IMG/VR virus record: IMGVR_UViG_2778261515_000019
Location: 1 to 38,450 of that record
Strand: one strand, 5' to 3'
DNA length: 38,450 nucleotides
From: a virus
Lineage: Duplodnaviria; Heunggongvirae; Uroviricota; Caudoviricetes
The stretch's first letter is position 1. The number at the start of each line of letters is the position of its first letter. A program made the translations under genes and the position numbers. The notes under the pieces were generated by a model. It had not been told where the DNA came from. It did not search any database and saw only the letters and a program-made list of their open reading frames with translations. Below, one piece after another: positions 4,958 to 21,916 of the stretch.

Positions 4958-5232
4958 GGTTTCCCCGCGATATCCCCACTTTAGAAGATGTATCCCCGTC
5001 ACCGTCCCCGCGTAAAATCCCCGTTTTGGAAGCAAAATCCCCCGGATTAGGGTAGTTTCCCCGCGATATCCCCGCGTAAAATCCCCGGTATTAGATGCGT
5101 ATTTTTATGTAAGTATATGATTTTAAATGCTTTCCCCGTGGTGTCCCCGTATCATCCCCACGTTATCCCCGACCTGTCCCCGTGGTATCCCTTCCCCGTC
5201 CCTTTCCCGTCCCCGTTTCAAAGTGGGGAAAC
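4958..5232. repeat. Iteron-like array of about 17 TCCCC(G) motifs, many spaced 10 to 11 bp
   Basis: Repeated units TTCCCCGCGATATCCCC and CCCCGCGTAAAATCCCC each occur twice; run TTTCCCCGTGGTGTCCCCGTATCATCCCCACGTTATCCCCGACCTGTCCCCGTGG; array bounded by GGTTTCCCC ... GGGGAAACC. Confidence 0.65.
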
Positions 5233-12588: not shown

Positions 12589-14598
12589 ATGCTTAAATTT
12601 CGCCGCGATCTTAACGGTTACGGTGGAGTTATTAATGAAGGGCATAACGATCAATACGAATTTGAAATTGCTTTCTCAAGTACACAGCCTTATCAGCGCC
12701 AATTTTGGGATGAGCAAAATCAAGAAATGGTGGTATTAGATGAAATTCTGGTACATACACCGGAAGCGGTTGATCTGTCTCGTCTGAATAATAACGCTCC
12801 GTTGCTGTTCAATCATAATTTCGATAATCACATTGGTGTAGTCTGCGACGCTCGAATCGATGCGGATAACGTAGGCCGTGCTCTGGTTAAATTCTCTAAG
12901 CATGGCACTTTGGCTAATGATATTCGCAATAAAGTCATTGAAGGTACGATGGAAAAAATTTCTGTCGGTTATGACATTAAAGAATATCACATCGACTACA
13001 CCAAAGGGCAATTGATTGTTACTAAGTGGGCGCCTTTTGAAATTTCATTTGTGACGGTTCCCGCAGACGATTCGGTCGGTTTAAATCGCTCTCTAAATAC
13101 TATCACAGTTAATTTGGGGGCTAAACGAGATATGACTAAAGAACAAATCGAAGAAATCAAAGAAGAACAAGAATCAGCTCAGGTTGAAGAAACTCCGGTA
13201 GAAGAAAATAAAGAATCGGAAGTTGAAGAAACTCAAGAGCGCCAAGTTGAAGAGAATAAAGAAGATGAAAATCTCGAAGACGGAAAAGACGCTAAACATC
13301 CTGAAAGTGTTGATGATGATAGTTCAACTGTTCGGGAAACAGAAGAAGTAAAAGAAGAACGTGAAGCCGCTCCGGTTGAAGAAGAAAAAACCGAAGAAGT
13401 GGCTGAACGTTCCGAAGAAGACGAAGAAGAAATCCGAGCAATTGCGCGGGAACTAAATATTGATGACTCTGAATTAGCACGCGCATTGGCAATTAAAGAC
13501 ATGACGCCGGAAGCATTCCGCACTAAGGCACTAAATAATCTCGTCAATGCTCAACGTAATAACGAACAAATTAAGGACTCTAAAATGGAAAAAACTTTTG
13601 ACCTGAACAACGTAATTCGCTCTCTGGTAGATGGTGCTGCTCTGGGTGCTAACGAAGCTGAATATTCCGCTATGGCTGCTGGTGCTGCAATGCAGCGTGG
13701 TCGTGCTGCTCGCGGTGGCTCTGTATTCGTTCCGGCTGCTGCTCTGCGTGCTGCTTCCGAAGGTAACACCAAAGCTACTCTGACCGCTGTAACCGACGAA
13801 AAACTGCTGACTGAATCCTACATCGAAATGCTGCTTCCTGCTTCGTGTCTGGGTCGTCTGGGCGTGACCGTCCTGTCTGGTCTGAATGCTCCGATTGCTG
13901 TACCGAAAATGACTGCTTCCAGCGTTGATGCTTTCGGTTTCGTTGATGAAAACGGTGCTGCACCGGAAAGCAAAGCTGAATTTACAAACGTGAAAATGGC
14001 TCCGAAAACTTTTGCTGGTGGCAACCCGATCAGCCGTCAGTCTCTGAAAACTGTTCCGAATATTGCTACCCTGATCACTGATCACATTAACAAAGCTGTT
14101 CGTATCAAACTGGAACAACTGATTCTGTCTGACAAAGCTAACGAACGTGGTCCGAAAGGTCTGGTTAAGCAACTGGTAGACGCTAACCGCGTTACTAAGA
14201 AAACTGCTTTCTCTTACAAAGACTTCCTGAAAGAAATTGCAGCACTGACCGACGCTGGCGTTCCTGCTCAGGCGATCAAGTTCGCTATGAGTGGTGCAAC
14301 TGCTGCTGAACTGGAATCTACCCCGAAATCCGATCGTGGTGACGCTCAAGGCTTCATTATGGAAAACGGCAAACTGGCTGGTTACGATGTAGTTACTTCT
14401 GGCGTTATTCCGGCAGACCACATCGTTCTGGGTGACTTCTCCGGTATCATGATCGGTGAATGGGGTGGTCTGGAACTGGATATGGACGACACCACTTACC
14501 GCGCACAGTCTGCTATCGTTCCGCGTATCTGGGTAGACCTGGACTTCACCGTAGTTCAGCCGGAAGCTCTGAAAGTTCTGAAAATGGGCGAAGAGTGA
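12589..14598 (+). CDS. Prohead protease - acidic linker - scaffold-like coiled coil - HK97-fold major capsid protein, fused in one 669-aa ORF
   Basis: N-terminus has U35-type prohead protease motifs PLLFNHNFDNHIGVV and ISVGY; residues about 180-300 Glu-rich; C-terminal about 300 aa Ala/Gly-rich with capsid-like LSDKANERGPKGLV; optimal codons. Confidence 0.7.
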   Translation: MLKFRRDLNGYGGVINEGHNDQYEFEIAFSSTQPYQRQFWDEQNQEMVVLDEILVHTPEAVDLSRLNNNAPLLFNHNFDNHIGVVCDARIDADNVGRALVKFSKHGTLANDIRNKVIEGTMEKISVGYDIKEYHIDYTKGQLIVTKWAPFEISFVTVPADDSVGLNRSLNTITVNLGAKRDMTKEQIEEIKEEQESAQVEETPVEENKESEVEETQERQVEENKEDENLEDGKDAKHPESVDDDSSTVRETEEVKEEREAAPVEEEKTEEVAERSEEDEEEIRAIARELNIDDSELARALAIKDMTPEAFRTKALNNLVNAQRNNEQIKDSKMEKTFDLNNVIRSLVDGAALGANEAEYSAMAAGAAMQRGRAARGGSVFVPAAALRAASEGNTKATLTAVTDEKLLTESYIEMLLPASCLGRLGVTVLSGLNAPIAVPKMTASSVDAFGFVDENGAAPESKAEFTNVKMAPKTFAGGNPISRQSLKTVPNIATLITDHINKAVRIKLEQLILSDKANERGPKGLVKQLVDANRVTKKTAFSYKDFLKEIAALTDAGVPAQAIKFAMSGATAAELESTPKSDRGDAQGFIMENGKLAGYDVVTSGVIPADHIVLGDFSGIMIGEWGGLELDMDDTTYRAQSAIVPRIWVDLDFTVVQPEALKVLKMGEE

Positions 14599-14685
14599 AA
14601 TAACGAAGAATTGCCGGAAGAAATTCCGGTAGTTACGGCGAAAGCCACAGCTAAAAAGGTGGGACGTCCACCGAAAGCAAAATAA
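14599..14685 (+). other. In-frame 28-codon extension after the capsid TGA stop (candidate readthrough peptide NNEELPEEIPVVTAKATAKKVGRPPKAK)
   Basis: Frame open from TGA (14596-98) to TAA (14683-85); 24-nt block GTTACGGCGAAAGCCACAGCTAAA identical to the block after the tail-tube gene. Confidence 0.3.
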
Positions 14686-14690
14686 TAATT

Positions 14691-14716
14691 AGCCCTGCCT
14701 AACGGTGGGGCTTTTT
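14691..14716 (+). terminator. Rho-independent terminator (copy 1 of duplicated module)
   Basis: AGCCCTGCC-TAAC-GGTGGGGCT followed by TTTTTTG. Confidence 0.7.
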
Positions 14717-14747
14717 TGTATGTAAATACTCCATAAAGGGGGTAACT

Positions 14748-15038: not shown

Positions 15039-15444
15039 TAATATGCCGAGACTGAAAATCAAACGCGCCTTGCAAGATATTATCGAACAAGATTTAGGTC
15101 TGGCTTTAAACGTAGAACAAACTCAGCAAGGCTTTAGTGATGACGTGGTTTGTTGGATCACTGGAATGAATGAGACTTACACGCGTGTTCGTGGTGGTAA
15201 TGCAATGCAAGCTGAATGCGTTATCGAAATGCAATTATATTCTCAGATTCATGAAACCAAAATTCATGAGGGTATTTGCCAGATAATCCAGATTCAGCCG
15301 GATAACCCACGTTTTAAAGATTTGGGCTTCGCTATTTCAGATATCACTCCAGTAGCTTCTAATACCGATTATGACGATGATTCTAGTGATGGTGGTATCG
15401 TTGGGACACTTAGCCTTAAATTTTCTTATGTAGCGCGTTTTTAA
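15022..15444 (+). CDS. Head closure / tail completion-position protein (start at ATG 15022 overlapping upstream gene by 17 nt)
   Basis: RBS AGGGGGT 5 nt before ATG 15022; track ORF starts further upstream at 14974. Confidence 0.4.
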   Translation: MLATVNNMPRLKIKRALQDIIEQDLGLALNVEQTQQGFSDDVVCWITGMNETYTRVRGGNAMQAECVIEMQLYSQIHETKIHEGICQIIQIQPDNPRFKDLGFAISDITPVASNTDYDDDSSDGGIVGTLSLKFSYVARF

Positions 15445-15453
15445 GGGGTAATA

Positions 15454-16287
15454 ATGAATATTACACAAGATAACTTAGACATTTTCACGGGGTCGCATGT
15501 TGAAGTGTCGATCTCTAACCAGCTAGACAATCAGGTCGACTTTTTCGATCCTAGCTTTAGTTCTATGGAGAACATCGCAGCATTCCCTACGCTAACAGAA
15601 TCCACAGAGATTGAAACTCTGGAAGAGTACGATCAGGACGCTACGGGGAAACTTGCTGGTTATCGTAGACTGGAACCGACAACACTCACATTAAACCGTG
15701 TTCTTGACGATGAACATCAAGCAATGTTGATGAAAGCGGTAGAGGATAAAACACCTTTACGCTTCCGTATGTTCTATGTTGTGAACTCTGGCTATAGTGC
15801 TGCTAACACTGGTTACTATGTCATCTATGACGCTTATGTCACTAGTCACAAAACCCGTGGCGCAGATAACAAAGCTGTAACACTGGAATTTAAACTTGAA
15901 CCAGATGGCGGGATTCTAGCAAGGGGTATAGCGACCGAAGGCCGGATCTTACGTCAGGGTGATTTTGGTTTGGGTGCTGGTGTAAATCCATTCACGGGTC
16001 CGATTGATAGCGAGGCATTAGCAGGAAACCGTTTCGTAACTTACAAGGGAACCGCTAGCGGTAATCCATATTCAACCGACACAGCATTAATTCACCTTCA
16101 AGCTAATGAGCATGGCGCATGGCAATTAACCTGTAATACTTCTGGCGCACCGCGTTTACGTGTCCGAAATATTCAGGAAAACGGTCGTTCTGAATGGATC
16201 AAGGTATATTCCACCAATGAGAAACCGACACCTAGCGAAATTGGCGCAGTGGCTAAGACTGACCGGATCGATTTCGGTGAGTATTAA
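15454..16287 (+). CDS. Tail-tube-fold structural protein (tail terminator or second tube-like protein)
   Basis: Segment TLTLNRVLDDEHQAMLMKAVEDKTPLRFRMFYV parallels DLTLTVNYIPGDSVHEKLIKAAEDGTRVQIKIEYYV of the 20036..20509 protein. Confidence 0.45.
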   Translation: MNITQDNLDIFTGSHVEVSISNQLDNQVDFFDPSFSSMENIAAFPTLTESTEIETLEEYDQDATGKLAGYRRLEPTTLTLNRVLDDEHQAMLMKAVEDKTPLRFRMFYVVNSGYSAANTGYYVIYDAYVTSHKTRGADNKAVTLEFKLEPDGGILARGIATEGRILRQGDFGLGAGVNPFTGPIDSEALAGNRFVTYKGTASGNPYSTDTALIHLQANEHGAWQLTCNTSGAPRLRVRNIQENGRSEWIKVYSTNEKPTPSEIGAVAKTDRIDFGEY

Positions 16288-16364: not shown

Positions 16365-19300
16365 ATGCAGTCGATCCAATTTAAACGCACACAAACGGCT
16401 GGTAAAAAACCAACGCCGGAACAATTATCACAGGGTGAAATCGCCTTACAGTTGGCGGATCATGTGATTTACACCAAAGACAAAAATAATAACGTAGTCC
16501 AAATTAGTGTTTCTCCAGAAAAACACGCTGAACTGAATACGAAAGTAGACAATAACAAAACTAGCACTGACCGTGTTATTGCTTCCAACAAACAAGAAGC
16601 CGCTAATAATCTGGCTAGTGCTAAAGCTGAACTGAATCAGACTATTACCACGAAAGATACAGCGACCAATAAGCGCATTGATGCTACTAACACCACGGTT
16701 AGTAACTTAACCCAGACAGTCACGGCAAATAAAACCGATGCTGATACTAAGATCAATAACCTTACGGGGACAGTTGCATCTAACAAATCAGCTATAGAAA
16801 CTACTGTAGCAAATAATAAACGAGATGCGGACAATAAAATCGCAGCTTTAACCACGACGGTTAATGACAATAACACCGCGATTAACAACAAAGTTAATAC
16901 CACTAACACCAACGTTAGCAACTTAACTAAAACTGTTACTGCAAATAAAACCGATGCAGATAACAAAATTTCTAGCTTAACTAGCACGGTTGCAGCTAAC
17001 AAAACAGCGATTGAAAAGGTCGTTTCCGACAACAAGAAAGATGCTGATACGAAGATCACCAACTTAACCAACACTGTTAATAGCAACCACACCGCCATTA
17101 ACAACAAGGTTGACCAGAATAAATCAGCTACTGATTCAGCGATTGCAGCCGCTAACCGTCGAATTGATGGTATTGAAGGTAGCAACGATGCTCTTTACAT
17201 CAAGAAGAATACCAACACTAAGCACGGCGGGTATCTGTTAAGCAAGACAGCTAACTATCTGGAAGACCAGACATCACGAGATCTTAACTACTTTGGTGCT
17301 TTCCGTACCAATGGTCTTGATGGACTCATGGATCTAACTCTTAACGTTCCTCACTCTGCCGGTAAAGCTCACGGTCGCGGATTTACTTTCCGTTATGCGT
17401 CTGGTGGATCTCGTGTTGAAACCTATGGTTTTGATAGAGATGGACAGAAGAACTTTAGCTATAAGATGTATCACGAAGGTGATAAGCCGACTCCTGGCGA
17501 GATTGGTGCATACACCAAAGCCGAAGTTGATAAGATGTTTGTTAAAAACGTCGCTATGTCTGTTCCCAATTCTAGCGAAAACGTATCTGCATATTTCAAA
17601 TTGGCAACCGCAACAATTCCACAAAACGGGCGTAGTGTGTTTTTCCGTATTCATGGTGGTGATGGTTACAACGTTGCGGCATATGACCAAGTTGATGTAG
17701 TAGAAATTCTTCTCCGTAGTGGTAACGATAGACCTAAAGGACTTAACGTAGTTGCATATCGTCGAAATACCGTCAAAGATTTTGATGTATTTGCCGTCAA
17801 TACATCCGGTGATAACTATGACATTTATGTGAAATATCAGCGTTACACTGATAACGTTATTGTAGAATATGGGAAATCTGTTAATGTAAGTCTGACGGTT
17901 TATGATACGCCGGAAGCCACGTTAATTAAACCTTCTGTTGGTGTTATTGGCGGTCGCGCGGTAACTCTATTCAATACAGAAAACAAACGAGGTGTGTTGA
18001 GTTTTGACGATAACACACAAAATAGTTATGATATTGTTCACTTGAGTAATGATAGGGGTACTGGACGAAAATATATTCGTAAATTCCGTAGTAACTATAA
18101 TGAAATGATCTGGCACGAGACGGTTCAAGGCGCCAGCTATCGTCTGGCTACTGGTGCAACTGATGCTCAGGAGATTCTAACCGTTGAATCTGTTAGCTCA
18201 ATTGCTGGAACTCATAAAGGTAATATTACTTCTGGCCGTATGCTGTTAAATGGCGGTAGTAATGTTATTACCTTGCGGCGTCCTGCTGGTCAATCCAACC
18301 ATATTGCGTTTCAAGATAATCGGACTGGAGATATTACCCGTCAAGGGTGGATCGGTTATGCCAATGCTGATACTAACGTTTTTGAATGGTATAGTGATGT
18401 AGGTGGCAGTTCTATTCGTCAACATATCGACGGACAGATCGAACTTGCAACCGGTAACACAAAACGCGTTTATACTAACGCTCAATTCATCTCAATGAAT
18501 AGCGACGCCTACCGTATGCTCTATGGTAATTATGGTGCATTCTGGCGTAATGACGGCGTTAAAGTTTATCTTCTTTCTACTGCCGAAAATGATAAATTGG
18601 GCGGATGGAATACTTATCGTCCATTCATTTATGATTTAACTTCCGGTAACGTTCAATTAGGCGGTGATGGTAACGAAGATGCATTAACGTTAGAACGTGC
18701 TTCTCGTGCCGCTCGCTTTAGTAATGACGTTTACATTAAGAAAGGGCATTTGACTTTCGACGCTGGGCGATTAAATTCCCGCGATTACTTCCGGTTTAAC
18801 CATTGGGGTGATAGCAATAACGGTCGCGATAACATCCTACAGATTGAAGACAGTAAGGGCGCACATTTTACCACTGAACGTACTTTATCAACTGGTGCGA
18901 TTAAAACTAAATTCTTCGGTGATTTGGAATCTGCTGGTCAAATTAAATGGGGTAAAGGGACCGCCGCATCTACGTTTACTCTACGTGTATGGGGTAACGA
19001 TAGTCGTAAACAAATATTTGAATGTGGCGATGAAAGTGGGTGGCATTGGTATACCCAACGACCTGGCGGTCCAGGTACTACAGCAATAGAATTTGCTATC
19101 AACGGTACTGTTAAGCCTCAAGCAATTCACAGTGGCGGTAATATCACTATCAACGGTGCTGATATTGAGTTTCGTCGCAGTGGCAATAAGCATTTGTGGT
19201 TTAGAGATCCGAACGGTTTAGAGTTAGGCTTGATGTACTGCGATGATGCTGGTGCTATTCGCTTCCGTGGTCAGAAACAAGCCCAGGCGTGGAAATTTGC

Positions 19301-19979
19301 AGATAAAATGATCCAGTTGGAATCTGGCACTGTATCCGGTGGCGGTAATGGCCTGATTCGTGGTGAAGTTGCTGGCGGTAGTTGGGCTAGCTGGCGTGAC
19401 CGTGCTGCTGGCCTTATGGTTGGGTGTCCTCAATCCACCAACTCGGCACATAACGTATGGAAAGCGACGCATTGGGGTAAATATCACATTGCAGCAATGG
19501 CTGTACATGTTCCTGATGGTACTATTACCAATGCTTTAGCTCGCCTAAACGTTCATGACGCCAACTTTGACTTTAACGCTGCGGGTGATTTTAGCGCAAG
19601 TCGTAATGGTAGCTTTAACGATGTTTACATTCGTTCGGACCGTCGTCTGAAAGTTAATCTGGAAGAATTAAAAGATGATGCTTTAGAGAAAGTAAACTCC
19701 CTGAAAGTCTACTCATACGATAAAGTTAAGTCTCTTAAAGATCGTAGTGTGATTAAACGCGAAGTCGGTATTATTGCTCAGGATCTGGAAGAAGTATTGC
19801 CGGAAGCAGTAGGTATTCAATCCACCGAAGATCCAGAAAATCCAGAAGCAATTAAGACTATTTCTAACTCTGCTGTTAATGCCTTGATTATTAAAGCTAT
19901 TCAGGAAATGGACGCCAAATATCAAGCTAAGATTGAAGCATTGACTAAAGAGATTGCCGAACTCAAAGCAACTAAATAA
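16365..19979 (+). CDS. Long tail fiber with N-terminal Thr/Asn-rich tandem repeats and C-terminal intramolecular-chaperone-like domain
   Basis: 1204 aa; two ~72-aa repeats NxSNLTxTVTANKTDADxKI...; C-terminal SDRRLKVNLEEL...VYSYD...GIIAQDLEEVLPEAV resembles autoproteolytic chaperone domains of fiber/endosialidase proteins. Confidence 0.8.
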   Translation: MQSIQFKRTQTAGKKPTPEQLSQGEIALQLADHVIYTKDKNNNVVQISVSPEKHAELNTKVDNNKTSTDRVIASNKQEAANNLASAKAELNQTITTKDTATNKRIDATNTTVSNLTQTVTANKTDADTKINNLTGTVASNKSAIETTVANNKRDADNKIAALTTTVNDNNTAINNKVNTTNTNVSNLTKTVTANKTDADNKISSLTSTVAANKTAIEKVVSDNKKDADTKITNLTNTVNSNHTAINNKVDQNKSATDSAIAAANRRIDGIEGSNDALYIKKNTNTKHGGYLLSKTANYLEDQTSRDLNYFGAFRTNGLDGLMDLTLNVPHSAGKAHGRGFTFRYASGGSRVETYGFDRDGQKNFSYKMYHEGDKPTPGEIGAYTKAEVDKMFVKNVAMSVPNSSENVSAYFKLATATIPQNGRSVFFRIHGGDGYNVAAYDQVDVVEILLRSGNDRPKGLNVVAYRRNTVKDFDVFAVNTSGDNYDIYVKYQRYTDNVIVEYGKSVNVSLTVYDTPEATLIKPSVGVIGGRAVTLFNTENKRGVLSFDDNTQNSYDIVHLSNDRGTGRKYIRKFRSNYNEMIWHETVQGASYRLATGATDAQEILTVESVSSIAGTHKGNITSGRMLLNGGSNVITLRRPAGQSNHIAFQDNRTGDITRQGWIGYANADTNVFEWYSDVGGSSIRQHIDGQIELATGNTKRVYTNAQFISMNSDAYRMLYGNYGAFWRNDGVKVYLLSTAENDKLGGWNTYRPFIYDLTSGNVQLGGDGNEDALTLERASRAARFSNDVYIKKGHLTFDAGRLNSRDYFRFNHWGDSNNGRDNILQIEDSKGAHFTTERTLSTGAIKTKFFGDLESAGQIKWGKGTAASTFTLRVWGNDSRKQIFECGDESGWHWYTQRPGGPGTTAIEFAINGTVKPQAIHSGGNITINGADIEFRRSGNKHLWFRDPNGLELGLMYCDDAGAIRFRGQKQAQAWKFADKMIQLESGTVSGGGNGLIRGEVAGGSWASWRDRAAGLMVGCPQSTNSAHNVWKATHWGKYHIAAMAVHVPDGTITNALARLNVHDANFDFNAAGDFSASRNGSFNDVYIRSDRRLKVNLEELKDDALEKVNSLKVYSYDKVKSLKDRSVIKREVGIIAQDLEEVLPEAVGIQSTEDPENPEAIKTISNSAVNALIIKAIQEMDAKYQAKIEALTKEIAELKATK

Positions 19980-20035
19980 TAAAAGTCGGGGGACTAGTTC
20001 CCCCGTTATAACAAATTTAATTAAGGGGTAATTAT

Positions 20036-20509
20036 ATGTCTCAACAATTCAAAGATATTTTTACTGGTGGTTTGGTAAGTCTGTTCTATCACGCTGATAC
20101 CACTAACACCGCTCTCAACCATGAGGGGTATGAAGAAATTAAAGAGTGTGCTGGTTTTCCTGAAACTGGTATCGAGCGCGGTACTGTAGAAGTTAAATCC
20201 TTCTCTTCTCAGTATAACCGTAAACTGGTAGGGAAGCTGAACGTTCCTGATCTGACTCTTACGGTGAATTACATCCCCGGGGATAGTGTCCACGAAAAAT
20301 TGATCAAAGCTGCCGAAGACGGCACAAGAGTACAAATCAAAATAGAGTATTATGTTGACGCCGGAAAACAGACTGGTATTCGCACCGCTTTCAACGGCTT
20401 CATTTCTAAAGTTGCTATGAACGGTGGCGATGAAGAAGTGGTAACTAAAGAGTTTACCTTTGCAGTGGACGGCAAACCGCTGAAACAGGAAATCTTCACT
20501 GCCGGATGA
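20036..20509 (+). CDS. Major tail tube protein
   Basis: 157 aa; strong RBS AAGGGGT; followed by terminator module as for capsid gene; tube-like motif DLTLTVNY ... FTFAVDG. Confidence 0.6.
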   Translation: MSQQFKDIFTGGLVSLFYHADTTNTALNHEGYEEIKECAGFPETGIERGTVEVKSFSSQYNRKLVGKLNVPDLTLTVNYIPGDSVHEKLIKAAEDGTRVQIKIEYYVDAGKQTGIRTAFNGFISKVAMNGGDEEVVTKEFTFAVDGKPLKQEIFTAG

Positions 20510-20629
20510 ACTAACGAAGAACTTCCCGAACCGGAACCACAGCCGGAACATGAAGCGGTGGTGATTCCAGAAGTAGAAGAAGTTACGGCGAAAGCCACAG
20601 CTAAACGAAGCCGCAAGGCTAAAGATTAA
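20510..20629 (+). other. In-frame 39-codon extension after the tail-tube TGA stop (TNEELPEPEPQPEHEAVVIPEVEEVTAKATAKRSRKAKD)
   Basis: Frame open from TGA (20507-09) to TAA (20627-29); shares AACGAAGAA(T/C)T.CC.GAA start and the identical 24-nt block with the capsid extension; indels relative to that copy are multiples of 3. Confidence 0.3.
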
Positions 20630-20634
20630 TTATA

Positions 20635-20663
20635 AGCCCTGCCTTAATGGTGGGGCTTTTTTA
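20635..20663 (+). terminator. Rho-independent terminator (copy 2 of duplicated module)
   Basis: AGCCCTGCCTT-AAT-GGTGGGGCT followed by TTTTTTATT. Confidence 0.7.
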
Positions 20664-20678
20664 TTGGAGCAATAAAAA

Positions 20679-21185
20679 ATGGCGAATGTCGTTAATAAGC
20701 CCGGCTGGGTCGGGTCATCTGCTGTTTCTGTAACTAGTCAACGATGGATGACCGCAGCAATGAACGCATTAAAGGTTAGTCGCCCAGCTAACATGAGTGC
20801 GATGTGTGGTCGTGGTATGGATACGGTTGTAGCTACTGCTGCGTGGTCTACTTCATTGGGTAATAACTGGGGTGTAACTGCTTCAAACTATCCAGTAACT
20901 GACATGCGCGGTAAAGGATCTATGGAGAACCCCGAAAACGTTGGCGTAGGGCGTCTGATTGGCGTTATCGTTGGTCAATTCAATGGTGGTACTCCTACTA
21001 TGGCTGTATATCTCCAGAACGGTAGAGCGGGGAATATAACCGTTAATTTGGGTGGTGCTGCTGTCACTGTTCCTTATAACAGTATGCAAAGTGGTTTTCA
21101 TTACTACTGGTTAAGCAATCCTCCGGCTGCTTTCCTTACCAACATTAAGAAGACTGGCACTAAGCAGACTTTGAAAATCTCTTAA
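20679..21185 (+). CDS. Tail-associated protein of unknown role
   Basis: 168 aa; between tail tube and chaperone genes. Confidence 0.45.
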   Translation: MANVVNKPGWVGSSAVSVTSQRWMTAAMNALKVSRPANMSAMCGRGMDTVVATAAWSTSLGNNWGVTASNYPVTDMRGKGSMENPENVGVGRLIGVIVGQFNGGTPTMAVYLQNGRAGNITVNLGGAAVTVPYNSMQSGFHYYWLSNPPAAFLTNIKKTGTKQTLKIS

Positions 21186-21227: not shown

Positions 21228-21536
21228 ATGAATATTAATGAAATGCTGAAAGCTCTTTCTCCGAAACGTGAATCTCTGACCATCGGTGGATTTACTTTCT
21301 ATGCTCGCCCTATGTCAGTAAAAGAATTTAACGAACATGTTTTCAATACTGATAAAGAAGACCGTGATGAACGTTCTATTCTTCGTTGTATTGAAGATGA
21401 AGATGGTAAACCGGTATTTGAATCTATGGAACAAGTTAAGGCACTGTATACTAACGTCCGCAGTGAATTAATCGGTTTGGTTGCTCAAGCATCATTGATG
21501 CAAGATCCGGCAGTAATTGAAAACGAGGTAAAGTAA
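21228..21536 (+). CDS. Tail assembly chaperone (G-like)
   Basis: 102 aa directly upstream of the tape measure gene; overlapping -1 frame ORF follows. Confidence 0.6.
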   Translation: MNINEMLKALSPKRESLTIGGFTFYARPMSVKEFNEHVFNTDKEDRDERSILRCIEDEDGKPVFESMEQVKALYTNVRSELIGLVAQASLMQDPAVIENEVK

Positions 21537-21916
21537 ACCCGCTTCTGAATTTCTACTTTCGGCAAATGATGCGATCGGGGCTTAGTAAAGATGAAATGGA
21601 TAATATGCCAATCACTCTGTTTTGGAAATTATACATTTTCGACACCTACTTAGAACCACAAAGCCCCGCGTTTCATGATATGCAGAATGCGATGTTGCAA
21701 TATTCCATGTATATGACGTCACAAGGAATGACACGCGAAACTGCACGTAAACTCAAGCCTAGCCAATTCCAATTAATTAGAGAAGAAAAACTCTTTAAAA
21801 CTAAAGAAGAACTGGAAGAACTTGCACGCAAGAAAGAAGAAGAACGTAAAGCTGCAACATTGAGCATGTTCGATCCATCTTTGCTTGAGAAACTCAGAAG
21901 CGCACAAACGGGGTAA
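21521..21916 (+). CDS. Tail assembly chaperone frameshift extension (GT-like product via -1 slip near 21530-21533)
   Basis: -1 frame open from 21521 to 21916; candidate slip A-AAG immediately before the G stop codon TAA. Confidence 0.5.
   Translation, partial: KRGKVNPLLNFYFRQMMRSGLSKDEMDNMPITLFWKLYIFDTYLEPQSPAFHDMQNAMLQYSMYMTSQGMTRETARKLKPSQFQLIREEKLFKTKEELEELARKKEEERKAATLSMFDPSLLEKLRSAQTG

Follow-up and report, generated by a model that had tools for sequence, protein, structure and literature searches.

The major capsid gene and the tail tube gene of an Escherichia coli prophage both stop at a TGA followed by A, and in both cases the same reading frame stays open through a conserved module that closes with TAA just before an intrinsic terminator. 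The anatomy of this module and its conservation among relatives can be read directly from the DNA, and the best explanation for them is probably programmed UGA readthrough yielding a minority of tailed subunits. The window referred to below is the whole stretch that was analysed, 38,450 nt of IMG/VR record IMGVR_UViG_2778261515_000019. It is an E. coli prophage and the region is present as such in 58 of 5426 complete E. coli genomes. Searches of phage records with the extension by megablast and tblastn gave no match and no phage record was close to the window, while an exact search for the module core among GTDB species representatives gave 0 matches.

The capsid and tail tube modules

The capsid gene (12589..14598, + strand) is an open reading frame (ORF) of 669 codons in which a prohead protease, scaffold and major capsid protein are fused, with an S78 protease and an HK97-type capsid recognised as Pfam Peptidase_S78 and Phage_capsid. 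It stops at TGA 14596-14598, which together with the next base forms the candidate leaky stop signal TGA-A (14596..14599, +), and is followed by 28 in-frame codons (14599..14682, +) translated as NNEELPEEIPVVTAKATAKKVGRPPKAK, comprising an acidic, proline-rich part, a VTAKATAK core and a basic end. Tandem stops TAA TAA (14683..14688, +) close the extension 2 nt 5' of the stem of an intrinsic terminator (14691..14717, +; terminator-like stem 14691-14712, T run to 14717), and the account of this gene end given in the first-pass annotation, an open frame of 28 codons between TGA and a TAA placed before a terminator, is confirmed. The residues directly ahead of the TGA are MGEE and a product spanning the stop would read MGEE-X-NNEELPEEIPVVTAK. 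The extension is in frame 0, the -1 frame layout of the T7 10B type was not found within the window, and the PGAP annotation of E. coli genomes omits the extension altogether.

It had also been claimed that the module recurs after the tail tube gene, and this proved correct. The lambda-like tube gene (20036..20509, +; Pfam Phage_TTP_11/12) has its TGA at 20507-20509 and is followed by a homologous module of 39 in-frame codons (20510..20626, +) translated as TNEELPEPEPQPEHEAVVIPEVEEVTAKATAKRSRKAKD, so that a product spanning the stop, which is preceded by QEIFTAG, would read QEIFTAG-X-TNEELPEPEPQPEHEAVVIPEVEEVTAK. The stops TAA TTA TAA (20627..20635, +; first TAA at 20627) are followed by an intrinsic terminator (20634..20662, +; called at 20634-20658) homologous to that at 14691-14717. 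A 25-nt core (14631..14655, +), which holds a GGC-GAAA-GCC mini hairpin at 14637-14646, has 100% DNA identity with 20581-20605 whilst the flanks differ, and this identity could be explained by gene conversion or by an RNA or protein binding site.

Several other features of the window were recorded. A 277-aa ORF at 15454-16287 is a second tube-like paralogue, the C-terminal half of which matches the tail tube protein at about 28% identity, and the tube gene sits, in an unusual order, among tail-fibre genes (gp34-like with an S74 chaperone domain; gp38_N-like) at 16365-21185. ARAGORN called a 91-nt tRNA-Gln(ttg) at 15209-15299 on the - strand, inside a + strand ORF, and this is probably spurious. 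Three operator- or iteron-like direct repeats of 19 nt (GTTTCCCCGCGATATCCCC) lie 75-96 nt apart at 4959-5148.

Conservation of the stop and the frame

Among the relatives, which are closely related E. coli prophages whose counts are not independent events and overstate the number of such events, all 33 of the capsid genes examined have TGA-A, then 28, 42, 43, 44 or 45 in-frame codons, then TAATAA, and in all 15 type A tube genes TGA-A is followed by 36, 39 or 41 in-frame codons; the type B tube genes (n = 13; 59% identical) stop at TAA 8 nt from the terminator and have no extension. A search of IMG/VR with the core, made without regard to the identity of the stop codon, found 59 module copies, including a 33-codon variant, and in 59/59 the first in-frame stop upstream of the core was TGA-A, with a long capsid or tube ORF immediately ahead of it. 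The same in-frame TGA-A cassette is borne by a second capsid type whose capsid domain is only 40% identical (L080 347-2600, and L081, L084, L104, L112 and L117).

Over all copies the extension is 28, 33 or 42-45 codons long after the capsid gene and 36, 39 or 41 codons long after the tube gene, with at least seven length changes, every one a multiple of 3, and the other two reading frames across it contain 1-7 stops each. The junction with the module is in frame in three gene contexts, and the codons neighbouring TGA-A vary while TGA-A itself stays. Wherever the module is absent the stop is TAA, with only 4-27 nt between stop and terminator in such relatives, and of the further + strand ORFs called in the window from 8550 to 31863, 17/17 stop at TAA. 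An open frame alone would be weak evidence, since dinucleotide shuffles leave the frame open in proportions of 0.25, 0.11 and 0.17, but conservation of the module across relatives is, as judged from these comparisons, far beyond chance. The relatives were checked for the frame-breaking indels or stops that would have told against an extension, and the frame is kept in all module copies. The first-pass suggestion of a candidate programmed readthrough site thus gains support from TGA-A in every one of the 59 copies, from a frame maintained through the length changes and from the three gene contexts. A recent nonsense mutation was considered and rejected, the TGA being invariant across diverged variants. 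A profile search of 5.8 billion proteins found no tail joined to a capsid or tube protein through a sense codon; its sole match was one 33-aa ORF call, and no homology to Qbeta A1 was seen.

The tandem stops of the extension abut the terminator, and a regulatory form of readthrough has to be weighed in which a ribosome at TAATAA, 2-5 nt before the terminator stem, masks the stem, RNA polymerase runs on into the low-copy genes downstream and the peptide is a by-product. We hold this to be distinctly unlikely. The final stop does always abut the terminator, the peptide sequence drifts within a frame that is maintained, and both modules stand after high-copy genes and before low-copy ones, but relatives that lack the module also have stops beside terminators, and the acidic-then-basic layout of the peptide is retained in all variants. 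If masking were to operate, the leakiness of one stop would set the ratio of capsid or tube protein to downstream low-copy virion protein.

Constraint on the peptide and on the RNA

The long extension shows 6 synonymous versus 15 non-synonymous substitutions, which looks neutral, and the short extension variant 6 versus 4 (p = 0.02), although the synonymous changes in the GRPP codons are also accounted for by hairpin pairing. On these figures amino-acid-level selection on the extension is weak. As to codon-level conservation in relatives, the frame and TGA-A are kept, but the synonymous to non-synonymous ratio is weak. The description of the tail as peptide-like rather than random holds for its acidic-then-basic layout, which every variant keeps, but not for a peptide sequence that is weakly constrained. 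The core of an AT-hook is R-G-R-P, and the likening of KKVGRPPKAK to an AT-hook does not stand, as there is only a GRP core and no RGRP; the corresponding residues are V-G-R-P-P in the window and Q/E-R-K-T-K or R-G-R-K in other variants.

In the short capsid extension the RNA forms three hairpins. One, of 11 bp with a GAAA loop (14609..14634, +; fold z = -5.5), begins 10 nt after the capsid stop codon, and its pairing survives two one-sided changes and a compensatory change of UA to CG; another, of 5 bp, lies over the VGRPP codons (14658..14672, +) and has a UA to CG compensatory change in L013. Taking the short-extension hairpins together, two compensatory and three one-sided changes keep pairing and one breaks it. 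The long capsid variant has a conserved multi-helix fold at the same offset from the stop, with no covariation, in which 2/52 paired columns are variable versus 15/34 unpaired ones, the figures for third codon positions being 1/18 and 7/11. As variation avoids paired columns even at third positions, part of the conservation acts at the RNA level. The hairpin after the stop differs completely between variants, no conserved structure was found by RNAalifold near the stop of the tube copies, and no Rfam family, SECIS included, was matched.

These data bear on the suggestion that the segment is a structured 3' untranslated element (an mRNA stabiliser, a processing site or a 3'-derived small RNA) common to the two most highly expressed late genes, with an open frame that has no function. 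RNA that folds far better than shuffles, compensatory changes, near-invariant paired columns, a 25-nt core identical between copies and neutral-like amino-acid change would all be expected of such an element, but it does not account for a TGA that never varies while its neighbours end in TAA, for length changes (at least seven) confined to multiples of 3, for a module joined in frame to three different genes or for the tandem stops at the end, and no Rfam family matches it. We hold it to be rather unlikely. Weak amino-acid selection, together with the conserved RNA structure after the capsid stop, nevertheless leaves some probability for an RNA-level role or for masking of the terminator by the ribosome.

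A bacterial SECIS is a hairpin about 10 nt after the UGA, and the hairpin at a similar distance here brings to mind selenocysteine, one of several other ways of decoding the TGA (the rest being code reassignment, a suppressor tRNA of the phage and a separate start of translation within the extension) that we consider highly improbable as a group. There is no Rfam SECIS match for a hairpin that is completely different between variants; a reassigned code is at odds with other ORFs that stop at TGA and with long ORFs that are intact under code 11; and the sole tRNA call is the doubtful tRNA-Gln. One gene caller placed a TTG-started 33-aa ORF inside the long extension, as separate initiation would have it, but the start codon is not conserved, with TTG, TCG and CTT at that position.

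Proposed readthrough and its relation to known systems

If readthrough takes place, as we infer, its level, the residue inserted and the exposure and function of the tails might be pictured as follows. Most ribosomes would terminate at UGA-A and give the normal capsid or tube protein, whilst a small fraction would insert an amino acid at the UGA, probably Trp via near-cognate tRNA-Trp, and add a tail of 28-45 residues made up of an acidic, Pro-rich linker, the VTAKATAK core and a Lys/Arg-rich end, before halting at the tandem TAA codons just 5' of the terminator. In the capsid copies the structured RNA from 10 nt after the stop probably raises the level of readthrough. T7 10B and lambda gpV would suggest by analogy that the tails are on the outside of head and tail, where they may perhaps act as weak polyanion binders. 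The first-pass annotation held UGA followed by A to be the leakiest stop context in E. coli; it is indeed prone to misreading by tRNA-Trp, but the weakest terminator is UGA-C (PMC5289835). The annotated leaky coat stop in the Qbeta-type record is TGA ACT, six bases shared by the long capsid variants and the tube copies.

Other candidates for recoding were encountered. The distant capsids that are about 40% identical and lack the module stop at TAA, some with short Lys/Ala-rich tails fused in frame, and in others (L066, L072, L068, L073 and L001) basic tails lie in the -1 frame downstream of A-run slippery sites (A AAA AAG in L072), with a nearby hairpin, making these 3' ends candidate T7 10B-like frameshifts. 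The wider capsid family has only short, varied C-termini and so does not share a general Lys/Ala tail. The distant capsids hint that phages attach similar tails through several decoding routes, as has been reported for other phage extensions (PMC5009743). Within the window, the first gene of the tail chaperone pair (21228-21916) has GTA AAG TAA at its end, with an open -1 frame that runs from 21521 into the following ORF, which is likely to represent a G/GT-type -1 frameshift.

C-terminal extension of phage structural proteins is already known to occur by frameshifting in tailed phages and by readthrough in the RNA phage Qbeta, and a limited literature search found no report of readthrough in the structural genes of tailed phages. 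If the proposal is right, a conserved UGA readthrough cassette common to capsid and tail tube genes would be a new route for tailed coliphages. It would also be a rare natural instance of E. coli readthrough that comes with a candidate RNA stimulator, and the cassette could double as a natural site for low-copy display on head and tail. The sequence of stop codon, short spacer and structured RNA resembles that of MuLV gag-pol and of plant-virus readthrough, but those are eukaryotic systems; to our knowledge, stimulation of bacterial UGA readthrough by RNA structure is not established. The occurrence of the module in both head and tail genes has a parallel in the Listeria phages PSA, A118 and A500, in which the major capsid and major tail genes each give a longer second product by recoding (PMC5009743), although the host is Gram-positive, the recoding is by +1 or -1 frameshifting and the extensions are unrelated. 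In T7 and T3, too, recoding at the end of the capsid gene (10A/10B) gives a minor C-terminally extended capsid species (PMC5009743), but by a -1 frameshift, whereas the extension in the window is in frame 0. The proposed mechanism has a precedent in the coat protein and A1 of Qbeta: the major coat gene closes with a leaky UGA-A, and a minority of the coat subunits thereby acquires a C-terminal extension, with a 5% chance annotated in the record and an identical TGA ACT context. In Qbeta, however, the genome is ssRNA and the readthrough domain is long and folded, whereas the module described here belongs to a tailed dsDNA prophage, encodes a short low-complexity tail with no homology to that domain, and is found on the tail tube gene as well as on the capsid gene.
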